A DNA stretch of 64,000 nt from Candidatus Melainabacteria bacterium RIFCSPHIGHO2_02_FULL_34_12 (lineage in GTDB: Bacteria > Cyanobacteriota > Vampirovibrionia > 2-02-FULL-35-15): the NCBI GenBank assembly GCA_001784555.1, contig MFRM01000006.1:34244-98243 (forward strand), in the 5' to 3' direction. Made by a program: the position numbers and the translations under genes. Position 1 is the stretch's first letter. Every line of letters begins with the position of its first letter. The notes beneath the pieces are model-generated. The model had not been told where the DNA came from. It worked only from the letters and a program-made list of their open reading frames with translations, and did not search any database. This document shows positions 3,576-49,775 of this stretch, in pieces.

Positions 3576-4376
3576 CTAAATTTTCTGAAACATATAACCA
3601 GTTCCACGTGAGGTAAGAATAAGTTCTGGATTTGCTGGATCTTCTTCCAGCTTTGAACGCAATCTGCTTATATGAACATCTACTACACGGGTATCTATTC
3701 TATGATCTGCTGGATAAGACCAAACTTGTTGCAGAATTTCTGCACGGGAATATGGTTTTCCGGAATTACTTACAAGCAGCTCAAGCAGATTAAATTCCAT
3801 TCCAGTTAAGCGAATTCTCTCATTATTTTTATAAACCTGTCTTTTGCTGGTATCGATTTTTAAATTTCCAATAACTATTACATTATTTGAATGGCCGCTT
3901 GCCTGTTCCATAGGCCTGTCTGTAACTCTTCTTAAAACTGCCTTTATTCTGGCCTCAAGTTCATTTGGACTGAATGGTTTAGTGACATAATCATCAGCAC
4001 CCATCTCCAGTCCTTTTATTCTGTCAGCTACATCTACAACTGCTGAAAGAATAATTACAGGCACTTCTGAATAAGATCTAATTTCTTTACATACAGCAAA
4101 ACCATCTACTTTTGGGAGCATAATATCGAGAATTACAATGTCAGGGTGGTAGGTATTAAATTTTTCAATGGCTTCTTCCCCGTCATGTGCAATATCAACC
4201 TGATAACCGGAGAGTTTTAAACGTGTTTCAAGTATTCGTCGTATTGTAGTTTCATCATCTACAATTAATACTTTTGTTTTTGGTTCCTTCTCAACAGTTT
4301 CTATTGGTTGAGATGGAATTGGTTGTGGTGAAGGAATTTGTACAGTTTCATTTTCTGGTTTGAAAACTGTTTCCAT
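3576..4376 (-). CDS. OmpR-family two-component response regulator, RpaB/Ycf27-like
   Basis: Receiver domain KVLIVDDETTIRRILE...DIVILDIMLPKVDGFAVC...KPFSPNELEARIKAVLRR plus a winged-helix C-terminus (RIDTRVVDVHISRLRSKLE...TSRGTGYMF). A roughly 30-aa N-terminal extension is typical of the cyanobacterial RpaB type. Confidence 0.8.
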   Translation of the reverse strand: METVFKPENETVQIPSPQPIPSQPIETVEKEPKTKVLIVDDETTIRRILETRLKLSGYQVDIAHDGEEAIEKFNTYHPDIVILDIMLPKVDGFAVCKEIRSYSEVPVIILSAVVDVADRIKGLEMGADDYVTKPFSPNELEARIKAVLRRVTDRPMEQASGHSNNVIVIGNLKIDTSKRQVYKNNERIRLTGMEFNLLELLVSNSGKPYSRAEILQQVWSYPADHRIDTRVVDVHISRLRSKLEEDPANPELILTSRGTGYMFQKI

Positions 4377-4400
4377 TAGCTCTTACCTCTTTAATTTTTT

Positions 4401-7435: not shown

Positions 7436-9129
7436 TATTTAATGGTTGGATCGAATCTTCCTGATTCTATGTTTATTCTTCTTAATTCTTGATTTAAATC
7501 TTGCATTTGTTTTAAGCCATCCAGCCTGTATTGAGGTGGATATGAATATTTAAAGTTTCTCCCGCTTGAATCTCCAGGTAGATTAATAAACTGATCATCT
7601 CCAGTAAATGCATTTGGATTGTGAGCAGTTAAGATGTCAGACAGTGGATGAAAAGTATATAAAGGTGGACTGTGTGCCATAGTTTCTATTAGCTTTAGCA
7701 TGTAGTCTGGAGTCATTTGATCTGGTGTATGGTCTATTCCGTAAATATCTGCCATATTTCTTTGTTCATCAGGTGATAGAGAACTATAATTTTGTGCTTC
7801 AAAAGGTATATTGTGCGTGGAAAATGCAAGTCCATTTAAAGAATCATATTTGCTGACACCAATAAATTTGCCAGGCTTTTTGTCAGCACTGTCTCCCGTA
7901 GTAGTACCTTTTCTGTAGAATCTTGGGATTATCATTCCAAGAACTCCTTGTGCTTTTAAAATTTTATTACATCTTAATTGTCCTGTGCCAAGATTTTCTG
8001 CCATTATTTTTAATCTTCCTCCACCGGCAGTAATATATCTAGAGGTAAGTTCTGTAAGTTGATCATCCCAGATTTTTTCATCTCCTTGTGGATCTTCTGG
8101 TATATATGCTCCTGTATTTGGCTCAGCATCATTATCAATTGCAAATATTCTTCCAAGTCCAAAAACATGATCTATTACTTCACCAGTTGCTACATCTGCT
8201 AAACAATCATGCCTTTGATTAATGTATTCAAATCCATCTTCTCTAACTCTTTCCCAGTTCATTATTGAATTGTCCCATTTTTGTCCGGCAGGGCCGAGTT
8301 TATCAGGTTTGCATCCTGCTTTTTTAGTAGAGTCAACATAACCACGATGACGTAAAACCCATGTATCTGCACTGTCTCTGGCAGGCAAAAAAGGAGTATC
8401 AATAAATATTTCAAAATTATTTCTTATAGCATGATCTTTAACTCTTGCTCCTTGCATAAAAAGTTGGTACTGAAGCCAGCTGTGAAATCCTATATCATCT
8501 GCATTTTTCCCTTTAAAGGTGTTTATTGCAGATGAGTCATATTCTGCTATTTTATTGTCTTTCCAATCCCAGTAGGCTCTGCTTTCATTAATTACTTTAT
8601 TTGCTCTGTATATTCCAAAGTCACCAATCCAATATTTTTTAGCACCTAAAAAATCTGCAAAGCCAGATGGGAGTTTTGGTGTAAGAGAATTATTAAAAAT
8701 TAATCTTGCTACATGTTCAATTCTGTTTGCTTTTCCGTATAAATCTTTTGATCCGTAAGGAAAATCATTTTCAATTCCGGTAATTTCTGATTCGTAAATT
8801 TTTAAAACCGCAGTAGGTACATCTACTAAGTCTCTTAGCGATAAAAATAAAGGCCACAGAGCAAATGAACTTTGTGCTACATATGGACTTTCTCCGTAAC
8901 CAGCAGGATTCAGTGGAGTTAAAATAAATCCTGCGTGTCCTGTTTCAATTGCCCAGTCTATAGCCGGGATTAGATCCAGAAGTTTTCCATTTTCAAAGCC
9001 TGGCAAAAATAACTGAATTAATGCTTTTCTTTGAGGGCCACTTGAACCGTCTTTTGCCCATGCTTGCTTTGCAGTGGAAGTTAATAAACTACCGTAATCA
9101 TATTTGCCTGGATGGTATTGAACTCGCAT
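7435..9129 (-). CDS. 4-alpha-glucanotransferase (amylomaltase, GH77)-like
   Basis: GFILTPLNPAGYGESPYVAQSSFALWPLFLSL resembles the GH77 LPLGPTGYGDSPY...SAFAGNPLLI block. 564 aa. Its stop overlaps the start of the upstream GH13 gene, suggesting one operon. Confidence 0.55.
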   Translation of the reverse strand: MRVQYHPGKYDYGSLLTSTAKQAWAKDGSSGPQRKALIQLFLPGFENGKLLDLIPAIDWAIETGHAGFILTPLNPAGYGESPYVAQSSFALWPLFLSLRDLVDVPTAVLKIYESEITGIENDFPYGSKDLYGKANRIEHVARLIFNNSLTPKLPSGFADFLGAKKYWIGDFGIYRANKVINESRAYWDWKDNKIAEYDSSAINTFKGKNADDIGFHSWLQYQLFMQGARVKDHAIRNNFEIFIDTPFLPARDSADTWVLRHRGYVDSTKKAGCKPDKLGPAGQKWDNSIMNWERVREDGFEYINQRHDCLADVATGEVIDHVFGLGRIFAIDNDAEPNTGAYIPEDPQGDEKIWDDQLTELTSRYITAGGGRLKIMAENLGTGQLRCNKILKAQGVLGMIIPRFYRKGTTTGDSADKKPGKFIGVSKYDSLNGLAFSTHNIPFEAQNYSSLSPDEQRNMADIYGIDHTPDQMTPDYMLKLIETMAHSPPLYTFHPLSDILTAHNPNAFTGDDQFINLPGDSSGRNFKYSYPPQYRLDGLKQMQDLNQELRRINIESGRFDPTIK

Positions 9130-9176: not shown

Positions 9177-9377
9177 GTGTTACGGATTTATGTCCATAAG
9201 TTTAATTTTCTCTGAACGTATAAAGCGCCTTCCCTTAAAATCGGCTATCACGGCAGCAAGCTACCGTGTGTTACGCGGATTTTATCCCTTCAGCACCGGT
9301 CGGCGCTGTTAAGGAAGGCGCTTTGATTTTGCTCGTTTATATCCCGGAAGCAAGCTTCCGGGTTTTACACTTCGCTC
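9177..9377. repeat. GC-rich composite repeat. Two roughly 91-bp degenerate tandem units, each starting GTGTTACG(C)GGATTTTATCC and ending in a 20-nt hairpin (cacggcagcaagctaccgtg; cccggaagcaagcttccggg). The two units are also joined by a long-range inverted repeat: aaagcgccttccctta (9222-9237) versus ttaaggaaggcgcttt (9309-9324).
   Basis: Read directly from the sequence. The GC content is far above the flanking AT-rich DNA. Located between the GH15 stop and the GH77 start. Confidence 0.5.
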
Positions 9378-9386
9378 AAATAAATA

Positions 9387-11266: not shown

Positions 11267-12874
11267 TTAAGCCATCATTAATTGAGCTGTGGGCGAAACA
11301 TTAGAATTTTTGTGGATATTGTTGAATATGCCTTTGTATATGGCTACTGTCTCAGGTGAGTTTCTTAGGCTACTTAGCATATTAATTACTTCATTTTCAA
11401 CAGATGGCTCACCTGTAATGTCTTTGTATAAACCTAGGGCAGTATGTAAATAAACCTGACTTATATAAGGCTCTATTCGATTTGGATCACTCCAGTACCA
11501 GGCACAGCTTGTATACATTAGCTGTATAAATTTTTCCATTTCTAGAAGTTTATAAGCAGTATTTCCCCAGTGATGCTTGGAAACTCCTGGTTTTAAATGC
11601 TTGTCTAAAAAGCTATCTAATACTGCTACATAACGATCTGATGGTTCTGTATCTATTACATTAATATATTCGTTTTTTGCTGCTTTGGGATCTATAAATA
11701 GTTCACTACCTAACTCCTGAAAAAGCTCATGCATTCTGTCTCTTGCAAAATTAAAGGTATTCCTAAAATCAACCCTCCACTGTGAATTTCCCCCCACTGG
11801 ATATTCACATGTGCAATGTTCATTTGCACCCCAATGACCCAGTCCATGACCTATACAACTCCACGAGGTGCCTTGCTTGATTTTGGCTTCCCATTCAGGA
11901 GGATTATGTTCTAGAAATTGTGCTAAGTTAGCCATTTGACCATCCTTAAGCATATTAATTGCACCGGAAGCCACCTTTTCTCCGTTTCCATTATGTTCAC
12001 CTAAAGCTTCGGTATCTAAAGCTTGAATAATTATTTGATTATGTTTTCTATCATCATTTTTACCTTCATACCACCTTTGAATAAATCTTTCACTAGAGTC
12101 AAATACTCCTGCTTTTCCAAAAGCAAAACTGTTTGATACTTCTTCATCGCGGAAAAATACTGCAATGCTGCTTCCATCATCCAGGTTTACCTTATATGGT
12201 CTTGAAGGATCGAGATATGGAGCTTGACTTTTATCTTCCCATGAGTTTTCGTGACCATCGGTACTTATTGGTCTGATTTTTTCAGCTTGTTCTTGTGAAA
12301 GAACTATAAATTTTATGCCTTGTTTAACTAATACTTTTAAAACATCATCATCTACTGCTGTTTCAGGCAGCCAAGCACCTTCCGGCTCTCTTCCAAAATG
12401 TCTTTTAAAAGATTCCTTTGCCCATATAACCTGAGTTTCAACATCGCTCATATCAAATTGTGGATGTCCGTTTGAACTGGGAAGTAGTATTTTTTGAAGA
12501 GGTAAAATTGTATGATTAAATGATGCAAGAAGAAGAGCTGTTCCATGTCCTCCATAATGCTCTCTGCTTCTTCTATCACTCTCAGTTATTTCCCTATAAA
12601 CTTCAGGCTGATAAACTTCCATCCAGTCTAATAAGGTAGATCCCATATCAAAATTTAACCTTTCAAAAACACCTGCCCTTGCAAGAGGTGTATAACATTT
12701 TTGAGCAATTCTTCCGTTGAAATCAAGAGGGAGAGATCCATTTGAACAAGGTATTGGAACATCAATAGGTCTTGTGCCTCTGTTTTGAGGAATTGTAATT
12801 CTTCTTTTGGGTTGATATGTATGGAAATCGCTTGCAATAGAAGTATATAAATCGGCAGAAGAAATAGTTGTCAT
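11267..12874 (-). CDS. Glycoside hydrolase family 57-like alpha-glucan enzyme
   Basis: N-terminal FHTYQP (GH57 region I, H-x-x-x-P) and GAWLPETAVDDD (GH57 WxxE nucleophile region). Confidence 0.45.
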   Translation of the reverse strand: MTTISSADLYTSIASDFHTYQPKRRITIPQNRGTRPIDVPIPCSNGSLPLDFNGRIAQKCYTPLARAGVFERLNFDMGSTLLDWMEVYQPEVYREITESDRRSREHYGGHGTALLLASFNHTILPLQKILLPSSNGHPQFDMSDVETQVIWAKESFKRHFGREPEGAWLPETAVDDDVLKVLVKQGIKFIVLSQEQAEKIRPISTDGHENSWEDKSQAPYLDPSRPYKVNLDDGSSIAVFFRDEEVSNSFAFGKAGVFDSSERFIQRWYEGKNDDRKHNQIIIQALDTEALGEHNGNGEKVASGAINMLKDGQMANLAQFLEHNPPEWEAKIKQGTSWSCIGHGLGHWGANEHCTCEYPVGGNSQWRVDFRNTFNFARDRMHELFQELGSELFIDPKAAKNEYINVIDTEPSDRYVAVLDSFLDKHLKPGVSKHHWGNTAYKLLEMEKFIQLMYTSCAWYWSDPNRIEPYISQVYLHTALGLYKDITGEPSVENEVINMLSSLRNSPETVAIYKGIFNNIHKNSNVSPTAQLMMA

Positions 12875-19685: not shown

Positions 19686-21424
19686 AACAATATCAACCAC
19701 TATATTTAAAATACCGCCCACAAAAGCTCTCAGAGCTTATAGGTCAGGAAGTAGTTACAAAGACTCTTTCAAATGCAATTACTTATAATAAAATCGTTCA
19801 TGCTTATCTTTTTTGCGGTCCTAGGGGTACTGGAAAAACATCTACTGCCAGAATCTTGGCAAAATCTTTAAACTGTGAAAAAGGAACAACTATTGATCCT
19901 TGCGGTAAATGTGTAAGCTGTGTGTCTATTACTCAGGGTAATTCTCTGGATGTAATTGAAATTGATGCTGCCAGCCACAGAAAAGTCGAAGATGCAGAAG
20001 ATTTAATTAACAGAGTGAACCTCGGTACATATGGTTCTAGATTTAAGATTTATATTATAGATGAAGTACATATGCTTACTGATCATGCATTTAATGCACT
20101 TTTAAAAACACTTGAAGAACCACCGAAAAACGTAATTTTTATTCTGGCAACTACTGAAGAATATAAAGTAATTCCTACCATTATCAGTCGCTGTCAGAAG
20201 CTTGATTTTAAACCTGTTTTTCAGAACGATCTTGAAAAAAGAATTAATTACATAGCAGCTCAGGAAAAAATAAATATAGATGAAACTATAATTAAGTTTA
20301 TTTCTAAGAGATCCAGAGGATGTCTTAGAGATGCAGTGTCGCTGCTGGATCAGATAAGTGTTTTACAGGAAGAAAATAAAGTTATTGAGCCTAAAGAAGT
20401 ATTTGAGTTGTTTGGAACAGTTGACAGAACTATTTTATTTAAGCTTGTAAGTGCTGTTTTAACTTTTAGTCGCGAGGAATCAATTAACCTTGCAGAAGAT
20501 CTTGTCAAGAGCGGGAAAGATATTGCTGAATTATATAAAAATCTTCTTGAGCTGATTATTGATCTGGCAAAAGCAAAAATTGATTCTAAGTATAAAAAAG
20601 AATTAAGCCAGGAGTTAAATAATGATTTAGCGGTATTAAATAAAATAGAACATAATCATTTTTTAAAAATTATTGACAGATTGCAGGACTCACAGACCAA
20701 GCTTAGGTTTGCCCTTAGTCAGGAATTACAGTTTATGGTTGAAATTATGAGCATGATTGATGAAGATTTTCTTGTTTCAACCACAGATTTACAAAAAAGA
20801 ATTGAGAAACTTGAAGGACGAAACAGCGAACCGGCAGTGGGGCGAATCGGCGATACGGCGAAGGGACAAGAGAACGTAACGATGGTGAAACGAAAAAGCG
20901 AAGAACAAAATGTTATATCAGCAAGCCAGCATATAAGTGAATCCACTAACGCTATGGAACACGCCGATACGCCGGCTCGCCGATACGCCGACACGACTGA
21001 TTTAGATATGCTCTGGAAAAACATTATCGGATTAATTGAAAGTAATCCCACGAAAACTTTACTTATGCAATCAGAAAGTTATCTTATATCTCTTAGTGAA
21101 GATGTTGTGGAAATAGGTGTATCTAAAGATATGTTCTTACCCAGGCTTGAACATGATACAAAGAAAAAAGAAATGATTTTAAATTCTGCTAAACAAGCCA
21201 GCGGGAAAGAGCCAAAAATTATAAAATATCGTTTTTTGCCCAGAAAATTAGAACAAAATAGTTTTGAATCTACTCCAGCAGTAAAAACAAATGATTCTGA
21301 AGATGGAAACTTCAGCTCAGAAGCTAAAATCAGCTATAAATCAAAAATTGAAGAAAGCTCATTCCAATCTGATGATTTAACAGGTGCTATTAAAAATTTA
21401 CTTGGTGCAAAAGAAATAGATTAG
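19682..21424 (+). CDS. dnaX: DNA polymerase III subunit gamma/tau
   Basis: YRPQKLSELIGQE, Walker A GPRGTGKTS, zinc module CEKGTTIDPCGKCVSC. The C-terminal linker contains a GC-rich repeat segment. Confidence 0.9.
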   Translation: MKQYQPLYLKYRPQKLSELIGQEVVTKTLSNAITYNKIVHAYLFCGPRGTGKTSTARILAKSLNCEKGTTIDPCGKCVSCVSITQGNSLDVIEIDAASHRKVEDAEDLINRVNLGTYGSRFKIYIIDEVHMLTDHAFNALLKTLEEPPKNVIFILATTEEYKVIPTIISRCQKLDFKPVFQNDLEKRINYIAAQEKINIDETIIKFISKRSRGCLRDAVSLLDQISVLQEENKVIEPKEVFELFGTVDRTILFKLVSAVLTFSREESINLAEDLVKSGKDIAELYKNLLELIIDLAKAKIDSKYKKELSQELNNDLAVLNKIEHNHFLKIIDRLQDSQTKLRFALSQELQFMVEIMSMIDEDFLVSTTDLQKRIEKLEGRNSEPAVGRIGDTAKGQENVTMVKRKSEEQNVISASQHISESTNAMEHADTPARRYADTTDLDMLWKNIIGLIESNPTKTLLMQSESYLISLSEDVVEIGVSKDMFLPRLEHDTKKKEMILNSAKQASGKEPKIIKYRFLPRKLEQNSFESTPAVKTNDSEDGNFSSEAKISYKSKIEESSFQSDDLTGAIKNLLGAKEID

Positions 21425-24674: not shown

Positions 24675-24725
24675 TAGAGATTCCTCGTATATCTACAAAT
24701 GAAAATATAGCACAATTATTTTAAT

Positions 24726-24817
24726 ATTGCGAGGGCTTTAGCCCGAAGCAATCTCGTCATATTCTCGTGTAGCATTCGGGATTGCTTCGTCGTCCGCCAA
24801 GGCGGACTTCTCGCAAT
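24726..24817. repeat. GC-rich palindromic element, family copy 2. Terminal inverted repeat ATTGCGAGG ... CTCGCAAT encloses hairpins gggctttagccc and tccgccaaggcgga and the internal inverted repeat cgaagcaatctcg / cgggattgcttcg.
   Basis: Read from the sequence. Between the transaldolase stop, which overlaps the right terminal repeat, and the ugd start. Confidence 0.6.
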
Positions 24818-25557
24818 TAAATCTTTTGCTTTTCTGTTCCTACAATTTTAAAGCCGGATTTAGAAGCATCATTATAAAACATTTTTACTGTATCAAGTGA
24901 AAGCTCTTTAAGATCTTTGCCAACTCCTGCAAGTTTTTTTAAAATCTCATAGGTAACTGTAATAATTTGACAACCTGTTTCTTCTGCCTCAAAGATATTT
25001 AAAAGCTCTCTTGAACTTGCCCATAAAAGATCTGTTTTTGAAAGAGGTTTTAATATTTTTGCAGATTCAATCATGTATGGCTTTGGATCACGTCCTGTAT
25101 CTGCAATTCTTCCTGCAAATACAGAAACAATATTATAGGTATTAGGATTTAGAACTTCACTCACTGCTTTTACCTGTTCGACAGTTAAGATAGCTGTAAT
25201 ATTTAATGAAAGCCCGCTTTGTGAAAGTTTTTTTATAAGTGGAACGGATGATTCCTGTCTGGTGTTTGTAATTGGTATTTTAACGTTTACATTTTTCCCC
25301 CATGAAGCAATAATTTTTGCCTGACGCTCCATATCATCAAATTCATCTGAAAAAACTTCAAATGATATCGGTCTATCCGGAATATTTTTTAAAACATCAT
25401 GAGCAAAAGCTTCATAGTCTGTGATTCCATTTTTGTTCATTAAAGTTGGATTTGTAGTAAAACCTTTTACTATAGAACCCTTCTGGGCTTCAATCATTGA
25501 TTTAATGTCTGCACCGTCAGCAAATATTTTAATTTTTAAATCTTTAACTTGTGGCAT
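24817..25557 (-). CDS. tal: Transaldolase (short Fsa/Tal-type)
   Basis: IFADGADIKSMIE...VKGFTTNPTLM is the transaldolase family signature. Confidence 0.8.
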   Translation of the reverse strand: MPQVKDLKIKIFADGADIKSMIEAQKGSIVKGFTTNPTLMNKNGITDYEAFAHDVLKNIPDRPISFEVFSDEFDDMERQAKIIASWGKNVNVKIPITNTRQESSVPLIKKLSQSGLSLNITAILTVEQVKAVSEVLNPNTYNIVSVFAGRIADTGRDPKPYMIESAKILKPLSKTDLLWASSRELLNIFEAEETGCQIITVTYEILKKLAGVGKDLKELSLDTVKMFYNDASKSGFKIVGTEKQKI

Positions 25558-43142: not shown

Positions 43143-44849
43143 TTAATTTGTCCTGAGTTTAATGTGGTGATTTCCACGAGGAACTTCAAATCCAATAAAT
43201 CCTTTATCTGTAAGATATAAGTCTTTTGATTTTTTACCGTCAATATACAGCTCCCATGAGGGGTATAAATATTGTTTAACAATAAGAAAAGTCGGATTTT
43301 CAAGAGCTAAATCATAAAGAAAAGTATTTCCTTTTCTGTGATGTGAGAGGATTTCAGTACCTGGCTTCAGGTTCAGAATAAAATTGTTTGAATATTTTTC
43401 ATTTGTTCCAACCTCGTTTGCATAATTAAAATTAAATAAAATTGGTTCTGTTGTTTTAAGAAGTACACTCTGCGGACTGTGGCTGTTAGGAACCGTATAT
43501 TTTTCCCGGTAAAGCTGATTAAGCCATGATTCAGCATTGTAATTATTATGAACCATATCTTCGCCTGCAGAATGTAAGAATTTTGCACCGCTATAAAAAT
43601 GTAAAATAATAATAAGTATTAAAAACGGGATTTTTACCTTAAATTCATTAACAAGCAAAGCCATGATTATTGAACATAAAAAAGAATATACTAGAAATAA
43701 TCTCCATGAAAATTGAAGTCCATAAAGAATAGGCGGAAGATGCTGCCAGGCAGTTTTGCTTAAGAGGAGAATTATTGTTATTGATAAAGTACAAATTAAA
43801 AAAACAGCAAGGTTATTAAGCTGTATTTTTCGTTTTGCAATGAAAAGAAAAAGTAAAATTGCAATTGAAATAAGAAAAAGCTGACCTGCCTGCCATCTCT
43901 CTCCCGAATTACTCAGATCTAAAAACGCATAACACCAGCTTATATGCTCAAGCACTGTATTTAAATCTACCCGGTCAAATCCTCTGATATCACCGTTTAA
44001 GTGTTTTAGAGCATTATTTGCAGGAATTACATAAATAAGTGAAGCTGTTATGCCAATTACATTTGCAATAAACCAGTAGATGAGAGTGCTTTTATTTTCC
44101 TTTAAAAAAGTTTTTAAACTTCTTTTGATAAGTAAATAAACAAAGAAACCTAGGTGAATAAGCATAATAAAGAAAAAAGAAGGCATAAGATGGCTAATAA
44201 ATAAAACAGGAGTAAATAAAGCAATTAATATCCAGCCGTTTTTTTCTTTTAGAAAGAAAAGTTTATAAAACCCAAGAAAATAAAAAGGCATCCATGTAAA
44301 TATCCATAATTCTGAATATGCGTTTCTGGAATAAAGATCAATAAATCTGTAAGGAGAAAATAAATAAATAATTGCTCCAAATAAACTAATCAGATTTTTA
44401 GATTCTGAAGCATGGAAAATCTTTCTAAGAAGAAAGAACATCCCGACTTCTGAAATAATAAATGAAAGAAAAACGGCAACTTTCATGCCTGAAAAAACAT
44501 AATAATGATTATCAAAAAGAGAAGCTAAAGCTGAAGTAAAATAAATTACTATAAATGATAAAGGCTGATAAAAAGCCCAGTGGGGATTACCTTTTAATCC
44601 GGCATTGTCTGCTTGCCATATTATTGGCAGATGAAAATCTTCTCTTAAGGTTTTCACAACTTCTAATGCATTAAAAACAGTACCCATTGAATCATGTCCG
44701 CTAGGCCAGGTTTCATATTCAAAAAGCGGGATTAAAACATAATACGGTGCAATAATCAATACCAAGAGAATAATCCCGTATTGTTTTACAAGTTCAAAAA
44801 ATTTAGTTTTTGTGGAAGTAAACAAATTTTTACTATCTTTTAAGATCAT
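43143..44849 (-). CDS. YfhO-family polytopic membrane protein (putative GT-C glycosyltransferase), copy 1
   Basis: More than 10 TM helices. The C-terminal soluble tail ends ...YLYPSWELYIDGKKSKDLYLTDKGFIGFEVPRGNHHIKLRT, the YfhO-type Y-x-PGW-x-x-x-V-DG-K ... VP-x-G-x-H pattern. Confidence 0.5.
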   Translation of the reverse strand: MILKDSKNLFTSTKTKFFELVKQYGIILLVLIIAPYYVLIPLFEYETWPSGHDSMGTVFNALEVVKTLREDFHLPIIWQADNAGLKGNPHWAFYQPLSFIVIYFTSALASLFDNHYYVFSGMKVAVFLSFIISEVGMFFLLRKIFHASESKNLISLFGAIIYLFSPYRFIDLYSRNAYSELWIFTWMPFYFLGFYKLFFLKEKNGWILIALFTPVLFISHLMPSFFFIMLIHLGFFVYLLIKRSLKTFLKENKSTLIYWFIANVIGITASLIYVIPANNALKHLNGDIRGFDRVDLNTVLEHISWCYAFLDLSNSGERWQAGQLFLISIAILLFLFIAKRKIQLNNLAVFLICTLSITIILLLSKTAWQHLPPILYGLQFSWRLFLVYSFLCSIIMALLVNEFKVKIPFLILIIILHFYSGAKFLHSAGEDMVHNNYNAESWLNQLYREKYTVPNSHSPQSVLLKTTEPILFNFNYANEVGTNEKYSNNFILNLKPGTEILSHHRKGNTFLYDLALENPTFLIVKQYLYPSWELYIDGKKSKDLYLTDKGFIGFEVPRGNHHIKLRTN

Positions 44850-47800
44850 ACTCCTATGAAACTTGCAGGCGTGAAGTTTTTGTATTTTGAGAGGTTAATT
44901 TTTTTAGTGCCTCTGTTTTCAAATGAAATCTCAAGTTCATTTGTATCAAAATGATATATTGCTATGTCTGCTTTCCCGTCTCCATTATAGTCAGCTGGCA
45001 TTGGAATATCTCCTGCTTTGCCAAGAGTAAATGAATAATGGCTGGTGCCGCTTTTGGCAGGAACAAAGTCTTTAGCGTATGCAATATCCCATTTTCCGTT
45101 TTCGGGTGTCCACGTGGCAAGATCTACTTTCCCGTCTCCGTCATAATCTGCTGGGACTACTCTTGAAGTAAGGCTTCCAACAGTAACTAATATTTTAGTA
45201 GGGGTATTTGAACCACCGCATGCGCTGCCTCCAGTAGGTTTTTCTCCTAGACATGAAGAAAGATATAAATTAAATTCACCAAGATTCGGTTTAAAAATTA
45301 TGTAATCAGCTTTTTTATCTCCATCAATATCAGAATAAAGAACTGTATCTGCAACTGATGTATCAAAAGTATTTGTGTAGTAGTTCTCTGTAGTTGATTT
45401 ATATGTAGGCCATCTTCTGTCAAATGAGTTATAACAAGAAGTATCAGTTTTGCCGTCACCATCTACATCTGCCGGCAAAGGCATTTCACTCCATTCGCCG
45501 CACCATGTTCCATAGTAAGACTGAGAACCCTGTGATTTAAGAATATACCAGGTGGAGTTTGATTTATTAAACAATGCAATATCGGATTTAGAATCCCCAT
45601 CATAGTCTGCTGGTACAGGAACTAAAAGCTCTGAGCTGTTCAAGCCTGAGAGAAGTACTTTGTTTAAATCAATTTCTTTTTCGCTTTGATCTTTTCCATA
45701 TATAATGTGCCAGACTCTTCTAGCTTGATCATAAAAACCTATATCTGCTATTTTGTCACCATCAAAATCGTTTGACCTTGTGCTGTATGAGCCAAGATAA
45801 GGACAATCTGCAATTTCTTTTATGTAAGCAGGTGTTCTGTTATCATTTGATTCTAAAAGTTGACCTAGAAGTTGTTCGAAATTTGCCCCCGGGACTTGGG
45901 AAAGTGTTTTTGGCTCTACCTCATATAATTCTTTTAGATTTAATGGGTCATCGTTTTTGTTATTACTTAAACCAAGTTTTACCCCTTTATTTAAATAAGC
46001 ATTTAAAAGAATTTTTCTTGTCTGTGGAGAAAGAACCGATCTAAACATTCTTGGTGTCATATAAAGCCAGTTAATTTTTTTGCTCACCCATATTTTAGGA
46101 TCAAGTAAAAAAGCAGCTTTAAAATTTTCAGATGATTTATCAAGCAATTCTTTTTTTATTGAAGTATCTGTAATATTTGCAGACGGAATGATGTGGCTTA
46201 AACCGGTATTGTTAATAAAAACATCTACATATTGAGGTTCAGTAAGTATGGTTTCATTTTTTACATTTTTGTTTTTAAGATACTTTGTAAAAGCTATCTC
46301 TTCATCGTTTCCACCAGAAGCAATATCTACTGAAGCAGGTATTTGCTGAAGTCCGGAAAACTTCAATAATTTATGTTCGACAAAAAATAAAGGTTTATTT
46401 TTATCACCGAATATAAAGAACATCATCGTACATATACTGAGGGCTATCATAATAACTGCATAAAATGCAGTTAATTTTATTTCTTTAAGCTTAAATTGAT
46501 TTTCAGCAAAGTTTAAAGCAAAAGGCAAGGAAAATGCGCCAATTATATTGGCAGAAATAAACACCTTTCCTGCACCAGCTTCCGGAATGGAGACTAAATA
46601 AGGTATTGCAAGTGCACTGATGAAAAATGGCAATATAAAAAGTCCCCATGAGTGTTTTAATTTATATGCCTGAAAGAAGCCAAATGCATAAATGAGTAAA
46701 AGAATAAAATTACTTTCAAGAGGACTGTGTTTAAAATCAATATTTGTTTGACCAAGTTTATAAAGCTGTACAAAAGGTACCAGGTTTTTATCAAATCTTA
46801 CTGCATTTCCAAATAACACCCCAAGTACAATGGCTGTTAGTGCCATTATCCCAAGATTTCTTAAAAGAATTTTTTCATTTTCAATTTTATGCCATTCTCC
46901 GGGCAGTGCATAAGACAAAAGCAAATGAATAAATATTCCAAGAAAAAGAATTACAAGCTTTGAAACATCAATTATTACCAGGCTGCTAAGAAATACTCCA
47001 ACTAAAAGAGCAAATTTTATATTTTGTTCTTTGGTAAAAAGTTTATATGTCAGATATACACCTAATAAAAAGAAAAAACATCCTATTCCAAATGAAGGCT
47101 CAAAAAACCAGTGCAATACAAGTCCGGACCATTCTGCAGATGCAATTAGTTTATTTTGTGTTAAGTAATAAACTTTATCCAGCAAATTAATAGGAAGTTT
47201 TTCTCCCTGTTCTTTTATAAAGAAGGTGGTTATTGGTGCCCATGCTAAAAATGCCCCAAACGGAACCAGATAGCGGTTGATTTTTTTTGCAGAAAGAAAC
47301 TGTGATGATAGAATATAAAGAAGAAGAAAAATAAGATTTAAAAAGAGGATAGTGAGCACATCAAAGGAAATTTCCGGATGACTTCCCGAGATTTTTGATA
47401 ATGTACCGGCAAGTATATCTGCTCCGTAATGATATCTAAGGTTCAAGCCGGGAATTGAAAGATATTTAAGCGGATAAATATCATTTAATAGCTGATTTAC
47501 ATTAAATACATGCGTATTCCCAGACCCAAATTTATTAAGTTTAATTGTAGAAATTGCAGATGTAATATAAATTAAATTTATTGAGCCAAGCAATATCCAA
47601 AAATAAATATCAGTGTTTTGTTTGATTGAAGCAGCAATATTTTTACAATCATTACTAAGGCTGCTTAGTAATTGTTTTATTTCTTTAAATTGCCAGGAAA
47701 TTACAGCCAGAATAGTTATGCCAGAAACAATTAAGCTCATTAAAAAACTTTTTGAAATTGTACCTGCAATGTTTAGAATTATTAAAAAAGAAGAAATGCC

Positions 47801-47947
47801 CAGCCCCGTATTGATAAGAAATGAGAGCAATTTATTTTCTTCACTTATCTTTAGTTCTTTTTTAATTATGTGGCCAATTAAAGAGAACAGGGAAATTAAA
47901 ACAAAACTAAAAAGCAGGCATAAAAGTATTGTAAAGTTGAATTGCAT
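44846..47947 (-). CDS. Fusion protein: N-terminal roughly 560-aa polytopic membrane domain plus C-terminal FG-GAP/VCBS-type repeat (beta-propeller-like) domain
   Basis: The C-terminal roughly 330 aa contains at least 6 repeats of x-D-[YVI]-[DN]-GD-[GSK]-K-x-D, followed by an aromatic residue and a turn (FDGDKIADIGFY, ADYDGDSKSDIALF, ADVDGDGKTDTSCY, SDIDGDKKADYIIF, ADYDGDGKVDLATW, ADYNGDGKADIAIY). The N-terminal half is strongly hydrophobic. Confidence 0.55.
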   Translation of the reverse strand: MQFNFTILLCLLFSFVLISLFSLIGHIIKKELKISEENKLLSFLINTGLGISSFLIILNIAGTISKSFLMSLIVSGITILAVISWQFKEIKQLLSSLSNDCKNIAASIKQNTDIYFWILLGSINLIYITSAISTIKLNKFGSGNTHVFNVNQLLNDIYPLKYLSIPGLNLRYHYGADILAGTLSKISGSHPEISFDVLTILFLNLIFLLLYILSSQFLSAKKINRYLVPFGAFLAWAPITTFFIKEQGEKLPINLLDKVYYLTQNKLIASAEWSGLVLHWFFEPSFGIGCFFFLLGVYLTYKLFTKEQNIKFALLVGVFLSSLVIIDVSKLVILFLGIFIHLLLSYALPGEWHKIENEKILLRNLGIMALTAIVLGVLFGNAVRFDKNLVPFVQLYKLGQTNIDFKHSPLESNFILLLIYAFGFFQAYKLKHSWGLFILPFFISALAIPYLVSIPEAGAGKVFISANIIGAFSLPFALNFAENQFKLKEIKLTAFYAVIMIALSICTMMFFIFGDKNKPLFFVEHKLLKFSGLQQIPASVDIASGGNDEEIAFTKYLKNKNVKNETILTEPQYVDVFINNTGLSHIIPSANITDTSIKKELLDKSSENFKAAFLLDPKIWVSKKINWLYMTPRMFRSVLSPQTRKILLNAYLNKGVKLGLSNNKNDDPLNLKELYEVEPKTLSQVPGANFEQLLGQLLESNDNRTPAYIKEIADCPYLGSYSTRSNDFDGDKIADIGFYDQARRVWHIIYGKDQSEKEIDLNKVLLSGLNSSELLVPVPADYDGDSKSDIALFNKSNSTWYILKSQGSQSYYGTWCGEWSEMPLPADVDGDGKTDTSCYNSFDRRWPTYKSTTENYYTNTFDTSVADTVLYSDIDGDKKADYIIFKPNLGEFNLYLSSCLGEKPTGGSACGGSNTPTKILVTVGSLTSRVVPADYDGDGKVDLATWTPENGKWDIAYAKDFVPAKSGTSHYSFTLGKAGDIPMPADYNGDGKADIAIYHFDTNELEISFENRGTKKINLSKYKNFTPASFIGV

Positions 47948-48007
47948 AAACGATCCTCCTGGGTTTATGACGGATAGAATAAAAATTTTAGCCGTCTTTC
48001 AGTGAAT

Positions 48008-48172
48008 TATTATTGCGCCCGAGCGAAAAACTCGGGAGCTTGCTCCCGGAGATGTGAGCGAGTAGCAACAAAACGCCTCCTTACTAACGCCTCCTGATGC
48101 CCATGGCTCAAATCGGCGAAAAACTCTGTGAGCTTGCTCCAGAGATAGTCGATTTGAAGGGAGGCGTTTTAT
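48008..48172. repeat. GC-rich repeat/palindrome island in the divergent promoter region. It contains hairpins cccgag-cgaaaaa-ctcggg and gggagcttgctccc, a direct repeat GCGAAAAACTC(g/t)G(g/t)GAGCTTGCTCC x2 (48023-48046 and 48117-48140), and a long-range inverted repeat caaaacgcctcc (48069-80) / ggaggcgtttt (48159-70).
   Basis: Read from the sequence. It begins with tATTGCGccc, reminiscent of the ATTGCGAGG element termini. It overlaps the spurious track ORF 47999..48187. Confidence 0.5.
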
Positions 48173-48263
48173 AAAGTTTAATAACAAAGCTAGTTATATA
48201 CTTAGAAAGCTTTTTTATTTTAAGTCTGTAGGTTTTGAAACTATTTACTAGGGTTAATACAAG

Positions 48264-49775
48264 ATGCATCTGGAACAAATGAGAAAAAAATTATTATTTT
48301 TATTGCTGTTTAATTTAATTTTTTTTGAAGCAGGTTGCACTTTAAGCAACAATTTTTTTAATGCCAAGAAAAAGGCAAATAAGATAAATAATCTTTTAGA
48401 TATAAACAGTGACGGCAAATCTGATTTAATATTCTGGAATTGCCATAGTTTTGAAAAAGATTTAAATGAAAGTAATGAAAAGGGATATTTTGAAACCACT
48501 GAGTTAGAAAATACAAATTATCAGAAAATAAAATCAGGAAATCCAGGAGACATTCCTGTATTTGGGGATTTTAACGGAGATGGAGCAAGTGACTACGGCC
48601 TTTTTCAAAATGTGGATGGTGTAAACAGATGGTACTTAATTGATGGATTATCAAAAACAACATTTCAGGAAAGATATGGTTTTGTTACCGACATACCTGT
48701 GCCAAATGATTATGACGGTGACGGCAAATGTGATTTAGTAGTTTATAGACCTCATAACAACGGTTTTTACGGTACTTTGTCAGAAAAAAACAAGTTACTT
48801 GAAATCCACCTTGGGATTGCTGGCGACATACCTGTGCCAAAAGATTACGATGGCGATGGAATTGCTGATCTTGCAACATACAGGATAAACAGTGGAAGCT
48901 GGCTAATAAGAGAATCTAAAAATGACCTCCCGAAAATTTTAATGTTAGGTGGTAGAAAATATTTTCCTGTTCCTGCTGATTATGACGGTGACGGAAAAGC
49001 AGATTTAGCTGTGTGGAATCCTGGAAATAATGATTGTAAAATAGCTTTTTCTTCTTTTAGTCAGAAATTAAGTAATGAAACTGCAAAAAACATCAGAGAA
49101 AAGCTTAATGGAATGAAATTATTTCCTGCTTCTTCAGACTTTGATGGAGATGGAAAAAGTGAGCTTGCATTTTGGGAATATAAGACAAATATATTTCATG
49201 TATTCAAATTTAAAAACAATGACTTTGACTATAAACGCTATGAGCTGGCTATAAGTAAAAATACAACCCCAATCAATTATTTTTTATTAAAAAGATACAT
49301 TCAAATAAAAAATCGAAAAATTAATACGACAAATCTTCTGGAAATATACAAATCACAAAGTAAAACAAATGAATTCATTTGTGATGTAGACGGAGATTTT
49401 ATAAATGATAAAGGGAAATATGATGCTTCTGCAAAAACAATTGTCTTTAAAGAATCATCATCAAATACTGAAAAAAAACTGCCAGTGCCTTCTGCTGCTG
49501 GTAAATTTGCAGCTGGTGATTTCGACGGAGACGGTATGTGTGATGCAGCTTTTGCGGATATTGAGAGCAGAAAGCTTGTATATTTTTCAAATGGTTTTAA
49601 AACTTTAACTTCAATTGATCTTGATAAAAAGGCAAATGGAATACCATTTTCAGCTGATATTGATTTGGATTTTATGTCTGATCCTTTATTTTATAATCCA
49701 GACACTAAAATATTTGGATTTCAGCTTTCAAGTGAAGGTTATAGATACGATGAGGTAGAGGGAAGAGGTCAATGA
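48264..49775 (+). CDS. Secreted/lipoprotein FG-GAP/VCBS-type repeat protein
   Basis: Signal peptide LLFLLLFNLIFFEAGC followed by at least 7 repeats (DINSDGKSDLIFW, GDFNGDGASDYGLF, NDYDGDGKCDLVVY, KDYDGDGIADLATY, ADYDGDGKADLAVW, SDFDGDGKSELAFW, GDFDGDGMCDAAF). Confidence 0.6.
   Translation: MHLEQMRKKLLFLLLFNLIFFEAGCTLSNNFFNAKKKANKINNLLDINSDGKSDLIFWNCHSFEKDLNESNEKGYFETTELENTNYQKIKSGNPGDIPVFGDFNGDGASDYGLFQNVDGVNRWYLIDGLSKTTFQERYGFVTDIPVPNDYDGDGKCDLVVYRPHNNGFYGTLSEKNKLLEIHLGIAGDIPVPKDYDGDGIADLATYRINSGSWLIRESKNDLPKILMLGGRKYFPVPADYDGDGKADLAVWNPGNNDCKIAFSSFSQKLSNETAKNIREKLNGMKLFPASSDFDGDGKSELAFWEYKTNIFHVFKFKNNDFDYKRYELAISKNTTPINYFLLKRYIQIKNRKINTTNLLEIYKSQSKTNEFICDVDGDFINDKGKYDASAKTIVFKESSSNTEKKLPVPSAAGKFAAGDFDGDGMCDAAFADIESRKLVYFSNGFKTLTSIDLDKKANGIPFSADIDLDFMSDPLFYNPDTKIFGFQLSSEGYRYDEVEGRGQ

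Follow-up and report, generated by a model that had tools for sequence, protein, structure and literature searches.

A probable gene-less IS200/IS605-type element with direct hairpin modules between divergent FG-GAP genes

The GC-rich island at 48008-48172 of the window (the whole stretch of DNA analysed here, 64 kb in length), which lies between two divergently oriented FG-GAP genes, is very probably a 159-nt mobile element that carries no gene, is derived from an insertion sequence (IS) of the IS200/IS605 family and is PATE-like or MITE-like in character. Such an element would be mobilised in single-stranded form ('peel and paste') by a Y1 (HUH) transposase supplied from another locus. The enzyme would bind two subterminal hairpins of the top strand, the guide bases that precede each hairpin on its 5' side would pair with a flanking target motif on the left (ATTAT or TTTAT) and with a terminal TTTAT on the right, this pairing would set the cut positions, and the excised circle would re-insert 3' of another TTTAT without target duplication. 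The two direct repeats seen in the island would then be two guide-plus-hairpin modules, direct rather than inverted since one and the same strand has to form both, and the inverted repeat described as enclosing them would be a long helix that closes the right-end domain. A matching transposase is presumably present in the source organism, and the copy in the window may still be mobile.

The island, its repeats and its copies

The island is bounded by the two genes listed below, the second of which is followed by a GT2 glycosyltransferase gene, a membrane-protein gene and further FG-GAP genes. The nearest named homologues of the 503-aa protein come from 'Candidatus Melainabacteria' (54% identity), and its closest homologue overall (P0001) is 81% identical.

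44846-47947, - strand: gene for a 1033-aa FG-GAP membrane protein, flanking the island, with 66 nt of original intergenic DNA up to the element
48264-49775, + strand: gene for a 503-aa FG-GAP lipoprotein, first in a plus-strand operon, with 91 nt from the element to its start codon

A sequence-only reading of this region had described a GC-rich island in the divergent intergenic region, with two direct repeats of about 24 bp, local hairpins and an enclosing inverted repeat, and all of these features are borne out. The GC content of the island is 0.51-0.59, against 0.337 window-wide. The direct repeats span 48023-48046 and 48116-48140 (93-94 nt from start to start) and share the parts GCGAAAAACTC (48023-48033 and 48116-48126) and GAGCTTGCTCC (48036-48046 and 48130-48140); with one mismatch tolerated, each of these 11-mers occurs at just those two sites in the 64-kb window. 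The inverted repeat is formed by AAAACGCCTCC (48070-48080), complementary to GGAGGCGTTTT (48160-48170), and the element strand of the island folds far better than shuffled sequence (z = -5.2). The same reading had taken the direct repeats for binding sites of a transcription factor that co-regulates both operons, or, alternatively, for another copy of a class of GC-rich palindromic elements. It is the alternative that we uphold, now specified as a non-autonomous IS200/IS605-type element; an inserted element at many unrelated loci, the outcome that had been named as counting against the regulatory interpretation, is what was found.

The internal repeats are not a product of chance, because the whole unit of about 160 nt recurs elsewhere. 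Within the window there is a second copy at 9220-9379, on the opposite strand and 83% identical to 48014-48172, with differences in the stems that are mostly compensatory. This copy has a GH15-like gene on one side and a GH77 4-alpha-glucanotransferase gene on the other, within a glycogen gene cluster that has nothing to do with FG-GAP proteins, and on the same relative strand as the first copy it likewise folds better than shuffles (z = -5.9). The identical FG-GAP locus is present on contigs of several ENA metagenomes, where the element is found in all seven contigs with enough upstream sequence; three further contigs of the locus terminate inside the element, as would be expected because repeats break assemblies.

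The two window copies served to build a covariance model (R1), which was used together with a metagenome scan for the pattern AGCTTGCT-N75-100-AGCTTGCT-N5-GATAG, yielding 40 significant full-length matches, a set in which both AGCTTGCT loops and GATAG were required and the conservation of those bases is by construction. At least 11 copies in contigs of one metagenome-derived genome (Ga0155197), and one more in L044, are 95-100% identical over about 164 nt and have unrelated flanks. About 25 distant full-length members, which we assign to subfamilies B to E, come from other metagenomes with a host GC of 0.32-0.59, and several of these distant subfamilies show near-identical multiple copies within one dataset. 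One contig holds two tandem head-to-tail copies that share one TTTAT. All 40 matches lie between long open reading frames (ORFs), in mixed orientation relative to the neighbouring genes. Other matches to the metagenome pattern, e.g. termite-gut contigs with 123-126-nt spacing, fail the covariance model and were set aside as unrelated.

No Rfam 15 family matches the window at the gathering threshold, and a permissive scan of 47900-48300 gave chance-level matches alone (E > 1). There was no blastn match of the element to plasmid and phage collections; in viral contigs the two-loop pattern had zero matches and a single-unit pattern two chance matches without hairpins, and a scan of genome-collection contigs with AGCTTGCTNNNNNGATAGNCGATTT returned eight matches, all of them chance occurrences inside unrelated sequence. 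The family thus appears to be new, in that it had not been catalogued in the resources searched (Rfam and the plasmid and phage collections).

Insertion, boundaries and guide bases

The element belongs to subfamily A, the end signature of which comprises the hairpins CTCGGGAGCTTGCTCCCGGAG and CTCTGTGAGCTTGCTCCAGAG with AAAAA guides and TTTAT motifs. Its parts, and the second copy, are listed here with the evidence for each in brackets.

48009-48013, + strand: flanking target motif ATTAT, outside the element (flanks of 13 close copies compared; nearly all other copies have TTTAT)
48014-48172, + strand: the element, non-coding, 53% GC, subfamily A (flank divergence in 13 copies; a length common within one genome; colinearity; a covariance-model match of 184 bits)
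48026-48030, + strand: putative left guide AAAAA, directly 5' of the foot of hairpin 1, in the first direct repeat (its last base covaries with the last base of the flank motif)
48031-48051, + strand: hairpin 1, CTCGGGAG-CTTG-CTCCCGGAG, left subterminal imperfect palindrome, CUUG in the loop, at the core of the first direct repeat (compensatory stem changes)
48070-48082, + strand: 5' strand of helix 4, the long closing helix of the right-end domain; CAAAACGCCTCC of the sequence-only reading (compensatory double changes in 11 of 11 pairs)
48110-48117, + strand: 5' strand of helix 7, AAATCGGC, extending the right-end hairpin (recovered by structure-blind MAFFT; most pairs compensatory)
48119-48123, + strand: putative right guide AAAAA, directly 5' of the foot of hairpin 2, in the second direct repeat (guide/motif association across 39 copies)
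48124-48144, + strand: hairpin 2, CTCTG-T-GAG-CTTG-CTC-CAGAG, right subterminal imperfect palindrome, one T bulged, at the core of the second direct repeat (compensatory stem changes)
48145-48155, + strand: invariant ATAG 3' of the foot of hairpin 2, then the 3' strand of helix 7, GTCGATTT (alignment; GATAG is part of the search pattern and its invariance partly by construction)
48157-48170, + strand: 3' strand of helix 4, GGAGGCGTTTT, the second inverted-repeat arm as first read (pairing with 48070-48082)
48168-48172, + strand: terminal motif TTTAT, element-encoded, the last 5 nt and putative right cleavage site (flank and motif comparison)
9220-9379, - strand: second copy, subfamily A2, 160 nt, between the GH15-like gene and the GH77 gene, with flank motif TTTAT at 9380-9384

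A relative (L020), the proteins of which are about 53% identical, has the same divergent pair, a 1024-aa FG-GAP gene on the minus strand and a 494-aa FG-GAP gene on the plus strand, together with the same downstream genes. Its orthologous intergenic region is 170 nt long, AT-rich throughout and free of any island. When 48014-48172 is taken out of the window, the remaining 157 nt align colinearly with this region; the junctions read ...TTATTAT/AAAGTTTAATAAC in the window and ...ATAGTAT/AAAGTTTAGTAAC in L020 (a slash marks the junction here and below), and a single TAT is left after removal. As judged from this alignment, the island is an insertion into an ancestral divergent intergenic region. 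The exact donor joint we infer: the empty site is predicted to read ...GTGAATTATTAT/AAAGTTTAATAAC, and the junction of the excised circle would read ...GGAGGCGTTTTAT/TGCGCCCGAGCG. A split argininosuccinate-lyase gene (L024) that was considered as a case of insertion contains no inserted element, and its disrupted frames were taken as frameshifts.

The insertion splits a divergent region of about 157 nt, leaving 66 nt beside the 1033-aa gene and 91 nt beside the 503-aa gene, and a simple scan of 47850-48350 found no sigma-70-like promoter. An insertion inside a divergent promoter region may alter the expression of both FG-GAP operons, and any such effect would be a by-product of insertion rather than the work of a designed regulatory site.

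In one population variant (L012), 47842-48009, including the start of the 1033-aa gene, is missing and is replaced by 19 nt that match the left flank of another copy (L039) exactly, an arrangement that shows the left edge of the element to be a site of rearrangement.

Across the 13 close copies, flanks diverge directly left of TGCGCC (or TTGAGCG) and directly right of ...GGCGTTTTAT, and the left flank ends in (T)TTAT in every one. Subfamilies D and E have TTTAT both in the left flank and at the element end, and subfamilies B and C have TTTAA in the left flank and TTTAC at the element end. The two motifs do not represent a target-site duplication, because they differ from each other in B, in C and in the window copy (ATTAT versus TTTAT); they are, as these comparisons indicate, a target motif and an element-encoded terminal motif.

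Both hairpins (48031-48051 and 48124-48144) lie in direct orientation on the same (top) strand, with the left motif 17 nt upstream of the foot of hairpin 1 and the terminal motif 28 nt away from the foot of hairpin 2. Among 39 copies, the right guide base, directly 5' of the hairpin foot, is A in the 26 that end in TTTAT, which represent five subfamilies, and G in 12 copies of two subfamilies with a terminal motif ending in C (TTTAC, or ATTAC in two); there is a single exception (L056), and the last position alone is informative in this test. Subfamily C includes both guide/motif states, in perfect association. On the left, the guide base is U with TTTAA and A with TTTAT. The right guide base and the terminal motif are about 30-40 nt apart and are unpaired with each other in the RNA-like fold, and it would be hard to explain their covariation except by pairing between guide and cleavage site.

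Transposase link and right-end fold

Sequences of IS608 TnpA and ISDra2 TnpB served as tblastn probes, and as probes alone. The TnpA probe matched contig L051 at 297-707, where an ORF (303-737) matches Pfam Y1_Tnp (E = 2.8e-36), passes the NCBIfam equivalog model for IS200/IS605 transposases (134.5 bits, cutoff 55) and aligns to the solved TnpA structures of ISHp608 (IS608) and ISDra2. Upstream of the ORF stands TTTAA/CTAGAGAATT-CCCCACAGCTTGTTGTGGGG, a left hairpin of the same kind, and directly after it (721-873) R1 finds a right-end domain of about 150 nt (49 bits, E about 3e-9). The identical protein is encoded on 52 contigs. In sampled copies of this L051-type IS, three different left flanks, two ending in TTTAA and one in TTGAA, abut CTAGAG, and the AAUU guide of the IS fits both kinds of flank. 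Some copies have a short right end, GTGATA-CCCCGCAGCTTGCTGCGGGG-AGATTCATT/, followed by three different right flanks; others have a long right end, equal to the 3' 135 nt or so of miniature element D and ending in CTTTAT/. Over 20 of 20 nt (TACCCCGCAGCTTGCTGCGG), miniature element D is also identical to the right-end hairpin of the L051-type IS. By these comparisons both physical linkage and shared sequence appear to tie the family to an IS200-type element that looks active, the link running through the distant subfamily D by covariance-model homology, not close identity. For subfamily A, neither the window nor about 110 kb of Ga0155197 sequence yielded a transposase gene, and none of the loci examined has element halves split around an ORF.

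The linked full-length IS carries tnpA alone, without tnpB or iscB, and an omega-RNA role is therefore not implied. A tnpB/omega-RNA connection was rejected for want of support, the ISDra2 TnpB probe having found no credible match.

The fold of the element is strongly conserved. On an alignment fitted to the model's own structure, standard pairs fill 95.7% of pair cells, as compared with 35-53% for slid controls, and double (compensatory) changes are found in 31 of 41 pairs, the covarying pairs including 11 of 11 in closing helix 4 and 8 of 9 in helix 7. The two hairpins and helix 7 also emerged from a structure-blind MAFFT alignment of 13 diverse members, in which most of their positions show several types of pair. 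The fold can be assigned to a single strand, because G-T pairs outnumber A-C mismatches by 93 to 15 on the element strand, which is the one that carries tnpA in the full IS. The right-end domain is an elaborate three-way junction; strong covariation across subfamilies is seen in helix 4, in helix 7 and at the junction itself, and helix 4 sequesters part of the terminal motif.

Structure of this kind could also mark structured non-coding RNA genes or cis-regulatory RNA elements, the copies of which are kept for their RNA function. Such a view would accommodate the covariation in eight helices, the strand bias with G-U favoured over A-C, the stable CUUG tetraloops and the fold scores of -5.2 and -5.9 on the element strand, and yet we consider it quite improbable. 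The copies match no Rfam family, show no preference for orientation or neighbours, are near-identical within a genome and have sharp boundaries at a fixed target motif. Moreover, one TTTAT serves both copies of a head-to-tail tandem, a transposase gene lies between related ends, and guide and motif covary at bases that are unpaired in the RNA-like fold.

For the mobile element that we favour, recognition by TnpA would explain the hairpins and guides but not obviously helix 4 and helix 7. Nor does TnpA chemistry obviously need the 28-nt distance from hairpin to motif, which hints at an additional function. We put forward tentatively, as an unlikely addition to this reading, that each copy of these gene-less elements gives rise to a structured RNA with its own function, beyond that of transposase substrate, or that the fold acts as single-stranded DNA. 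Candidates would be a guide of omega-RNA type that reads into the flank, a small RNA acting in trans, or an insulator or terminator of transcription that works in both directions; as single-stranded DNA, the fold would place the left and right cleavage sites side by side near hairpin 1, which would favour excision of the miniature element. On the bottom strand a T run follows each hairpin, and hairpin 1 with TTTTT scores terminator-like.

The nature of the linked enzyme bears on whether the element might instead be of REP/REPIN type and mobilised by a domesticated RAYT, a suggestion prompted by the kinship of RAYTs to Y1/HUH enzymes, by their action on hairpins, and by the short, intergenic, hairpin-rich and multi-copy nature of the element. 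The L051 transposase passes the IS200 model and fails the REP_Tyr_transpos (RAYT) model (33.5 bits, cutoff 80); its gene is multi-copy (the 52 contigs above) and lies inside a bounded IS with varying flanks. The hairpin modules are direct, not inverted, and the unit measures 159 nt, whereas REPs are 20-40 nt long. A REP origin is, on these grounds, highly improbable.

The ends of the element speak in turn against a MITE of the classical kind, bounded by terminal inverted repeats, mobilised by a DDE transposase and flanked by a duplicated TTAT or TTTAT target. There are no terminal inverted repeats, in that TGCGCCCGAG... and ...GGAGGCGTTT (or ...GGAGGCGTTTTAT) share a reverse-complement similarity of no more than 4-5 nt, and the same holds in the other subfamilies. 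TTAT-like sequence does flank both sides of most subfamily A copies, and the element is small and inserted in AT-rich intergenic DNA; yet the left and right motifs, constant within each subfamily, are different in B, C and the window copy, and the linked transposase is a Y1 enzyme, not DDE. We regard such an origin as extremely improbable. That the direct repeats are operators of a transcription factor co-regulating the divergent FG-GAP operons, as their number, their 24-bp length and their place in the divergent intergenic region had suggested, is almost certainly wrong, given that the unit occurs also in the glycogen operon and at more than 35 unrelated intergenic sites, is missing from the orthologous promoter of the relative, and changes its stems compensatorily with loop and junction bases alone fixed, the reverse of the pattern expected for an operator recognised by its sequence in double-stranded DNA.

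For annotation, a tempting false lead is removed, namely that these repeats are a regulon signature for FG-GAP envelope operons. The probable mobile element would also explain GC-rich structured islands and assembly breaks in an AT-rich, Melainabacteria-like genome. PATE-like non-autonomous IS200/IS605 elements are an ordinary kind of genomic parasite and already known; defined here is a widespread miniature family that appears to derive from IS200/IS605, with a covariance model, exact boundaries and a guide/target rule, which can be used in annotating metagenome-assembled genomes, in typing strains by the presence or absence of copies and in searching for the cognate TnpA.

Comparison with known systems

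Classical bacterial MITEs such as Correia, ERIC and Nezha have terminal inverted repeats and target duplications made by DDE transposases. The present element resembles them in being about 100-200 bp long, non-coding, intergenic, RNA-foldable and assembly-breaking, and differs from them in having neither terminal inverted repeats nor a target duplication. With REP/REPIN sequences and their RAYTs it shares the form of a short intergenic hairpin repeat that would be handled by a Y1/HUH enzyme; the modules here, however, are direct, the unit is four to eight times the length of a REP, and the linked enzyme scores as IS200 and resides within a multi-copy IS.

Closer parallels are found in IS608 of Helicobacter pylori, the transposase of which binds subterminal top-strand hairpins with four guide bases 5' of each foot (PMC3201880, PMC5934647). 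Its guides, GL AAAG with CL TTAC and GR GAAT with CR TCAA, obey the same last-position rule (PMC5934647, PMC3201880), and its left motif lies outside the element, 19 nt upstream of the hairpin, with the right motif inside (PMC3201880, PMC5934647). In the present family, too, the putative left cleavage site is outside the element (17 nt from the foot, against 19 nt in IS608), the guides are directly 5' of the feet with the last guide base complementary to the last base of the motif, the hairpins are strand-specific, and a conserved tetranucleotide lies 3' of a foot (ATAC at the left hairpin of IS608, ATAG at the right hairpin here). The two differ in target and terminal motifs, TTAC and TCAA in IS608 as against TTTAT and TTTAT here, and in the right cleavage site, which is about 10 nt from the foot in IS608, as also in the short right end of the L051-type IS, and 28 nt from it here. 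IS608 further carries tnpA and tnpB, whereas the present element is without an ORF.

The element is most readily compared with the palindrome-associated transposable elements (PATEs) described in Haloquadratum (PMC3119063) and with ISGst elements of Geobacillus, for which gene-less PATE-like copies have been described; ISGst2 has the target TTTAT, a terminal motif that differs at positions 3 and 5, and guide and motif that covary (PMC10055086). Like PATE-like elements, the present family is gene-less and multi-copy, has IS200/IS605-type ends with subterminal top-strand hairpins and no terminal inverted repeats, and appears to insert without target duplication 3' of a fixed 4-5-nt motif (TTTAT, as in ISGst2), presumably mobilised in trans by a TnpA. 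It differs from them in belonging to another sequence family, in its Melainabacteria-like host, and in a right end built as a three-way-junction domain that places the terminal motif 28 nt from the hairpin.

A variant junction at the FG-GAP copy of the element

The copy of the IS200/IS605-type element lying between the divergent FG-GAP genes (the 159-nt, gene-less unit at 48014-48172) has a population variant in L012, an ERZ4903070 contig that differs from the window over 47842-48013. This contig lacks the 5'-terminal part of the 1033-aa FG-GAP gene together with the intergenic DNA to the left of the element, and instead carries a 19-nt stretch that exactly matches the left flank of a different element copy (on contig L039). 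The junctions are located at ATTTAT-TTTCTT and TTTAT motifs, and the element itself carries two G-to-C changes in L012. The rearrangement could have arisen by recombination at the element or because its boundary was chosen aberrantly.

Other GC-rich sequences in the window

A second GC-rich repeat family, of ~150 nt and unrelated to the IS200/IS605-type element, has a window copy upstream of the RNase PH gene, and copies at other loci are 90-95% identical:

63514-63665, window copy
12264-12413, copy on compared contig L055
16907-17051, copy on compared contig L022

Members have inverted terminal arms of ~19 bp (GTAAAGTTTTCGAGGATAC ... ATATCCTCGAATGTTTTAC). The RNA fold z is -4.0, and one copy is separated by 17 nt from a copy of the element belonging to its A2 subfamily.

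A third structured GC-rich island (24722-24824; fold z = -5.3) is flanked by a transaldolase gene on one side and a UDP-glucose dehydrogenase gene on the other. It is closed by a 7-8 bp stem (TTGCGAG/CTCGCAA), and, read on the minus strand, the island holds a CUUG-loop hairpin, CCGCCTTGGCGG, and is itself preceded by TTTAA. This island may or may not be a further IS200/IS605-type miniature element; the window and the contigs compared contain no other copy of it.

The GC-rich stretch at 20788-21036 (up to 0.58) is coding; it lies in the 580-aa ORF of DnaX (DNA polymerase III tau/gamma), within the linker that follows the ATPase domains, and contains repeated GCCGATACGCC-like motifs.

Neighbouring mobile genes and short repeats

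On contig L126, the IS200-type transposase gene is followed directly downstream by a second Y1_Tnp ORF (1335-1793, 152 aa), an arrangement suggestive of two IS200-like elements inserted one right behind the other. A RelB-like/ParE toxin-antitoxin gene pair (L026 18046-18512) occurs in flanking genome sequence of the window's own contig, about 4-5 kb to the right of where the window stops.

The metagenome genomes that bear the element harbour small repeats of several types; their contigs carry additional short families of about 80-150 nt, one of them directly adjoining a copy of the element:

140-217, 4305-4383 and 8385-8466, short repeats on L033
9386-9466 on L039 and 5374-5454 on L091, short repeats
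3465-3617 on L113 and 487-640 on L114, short repeats
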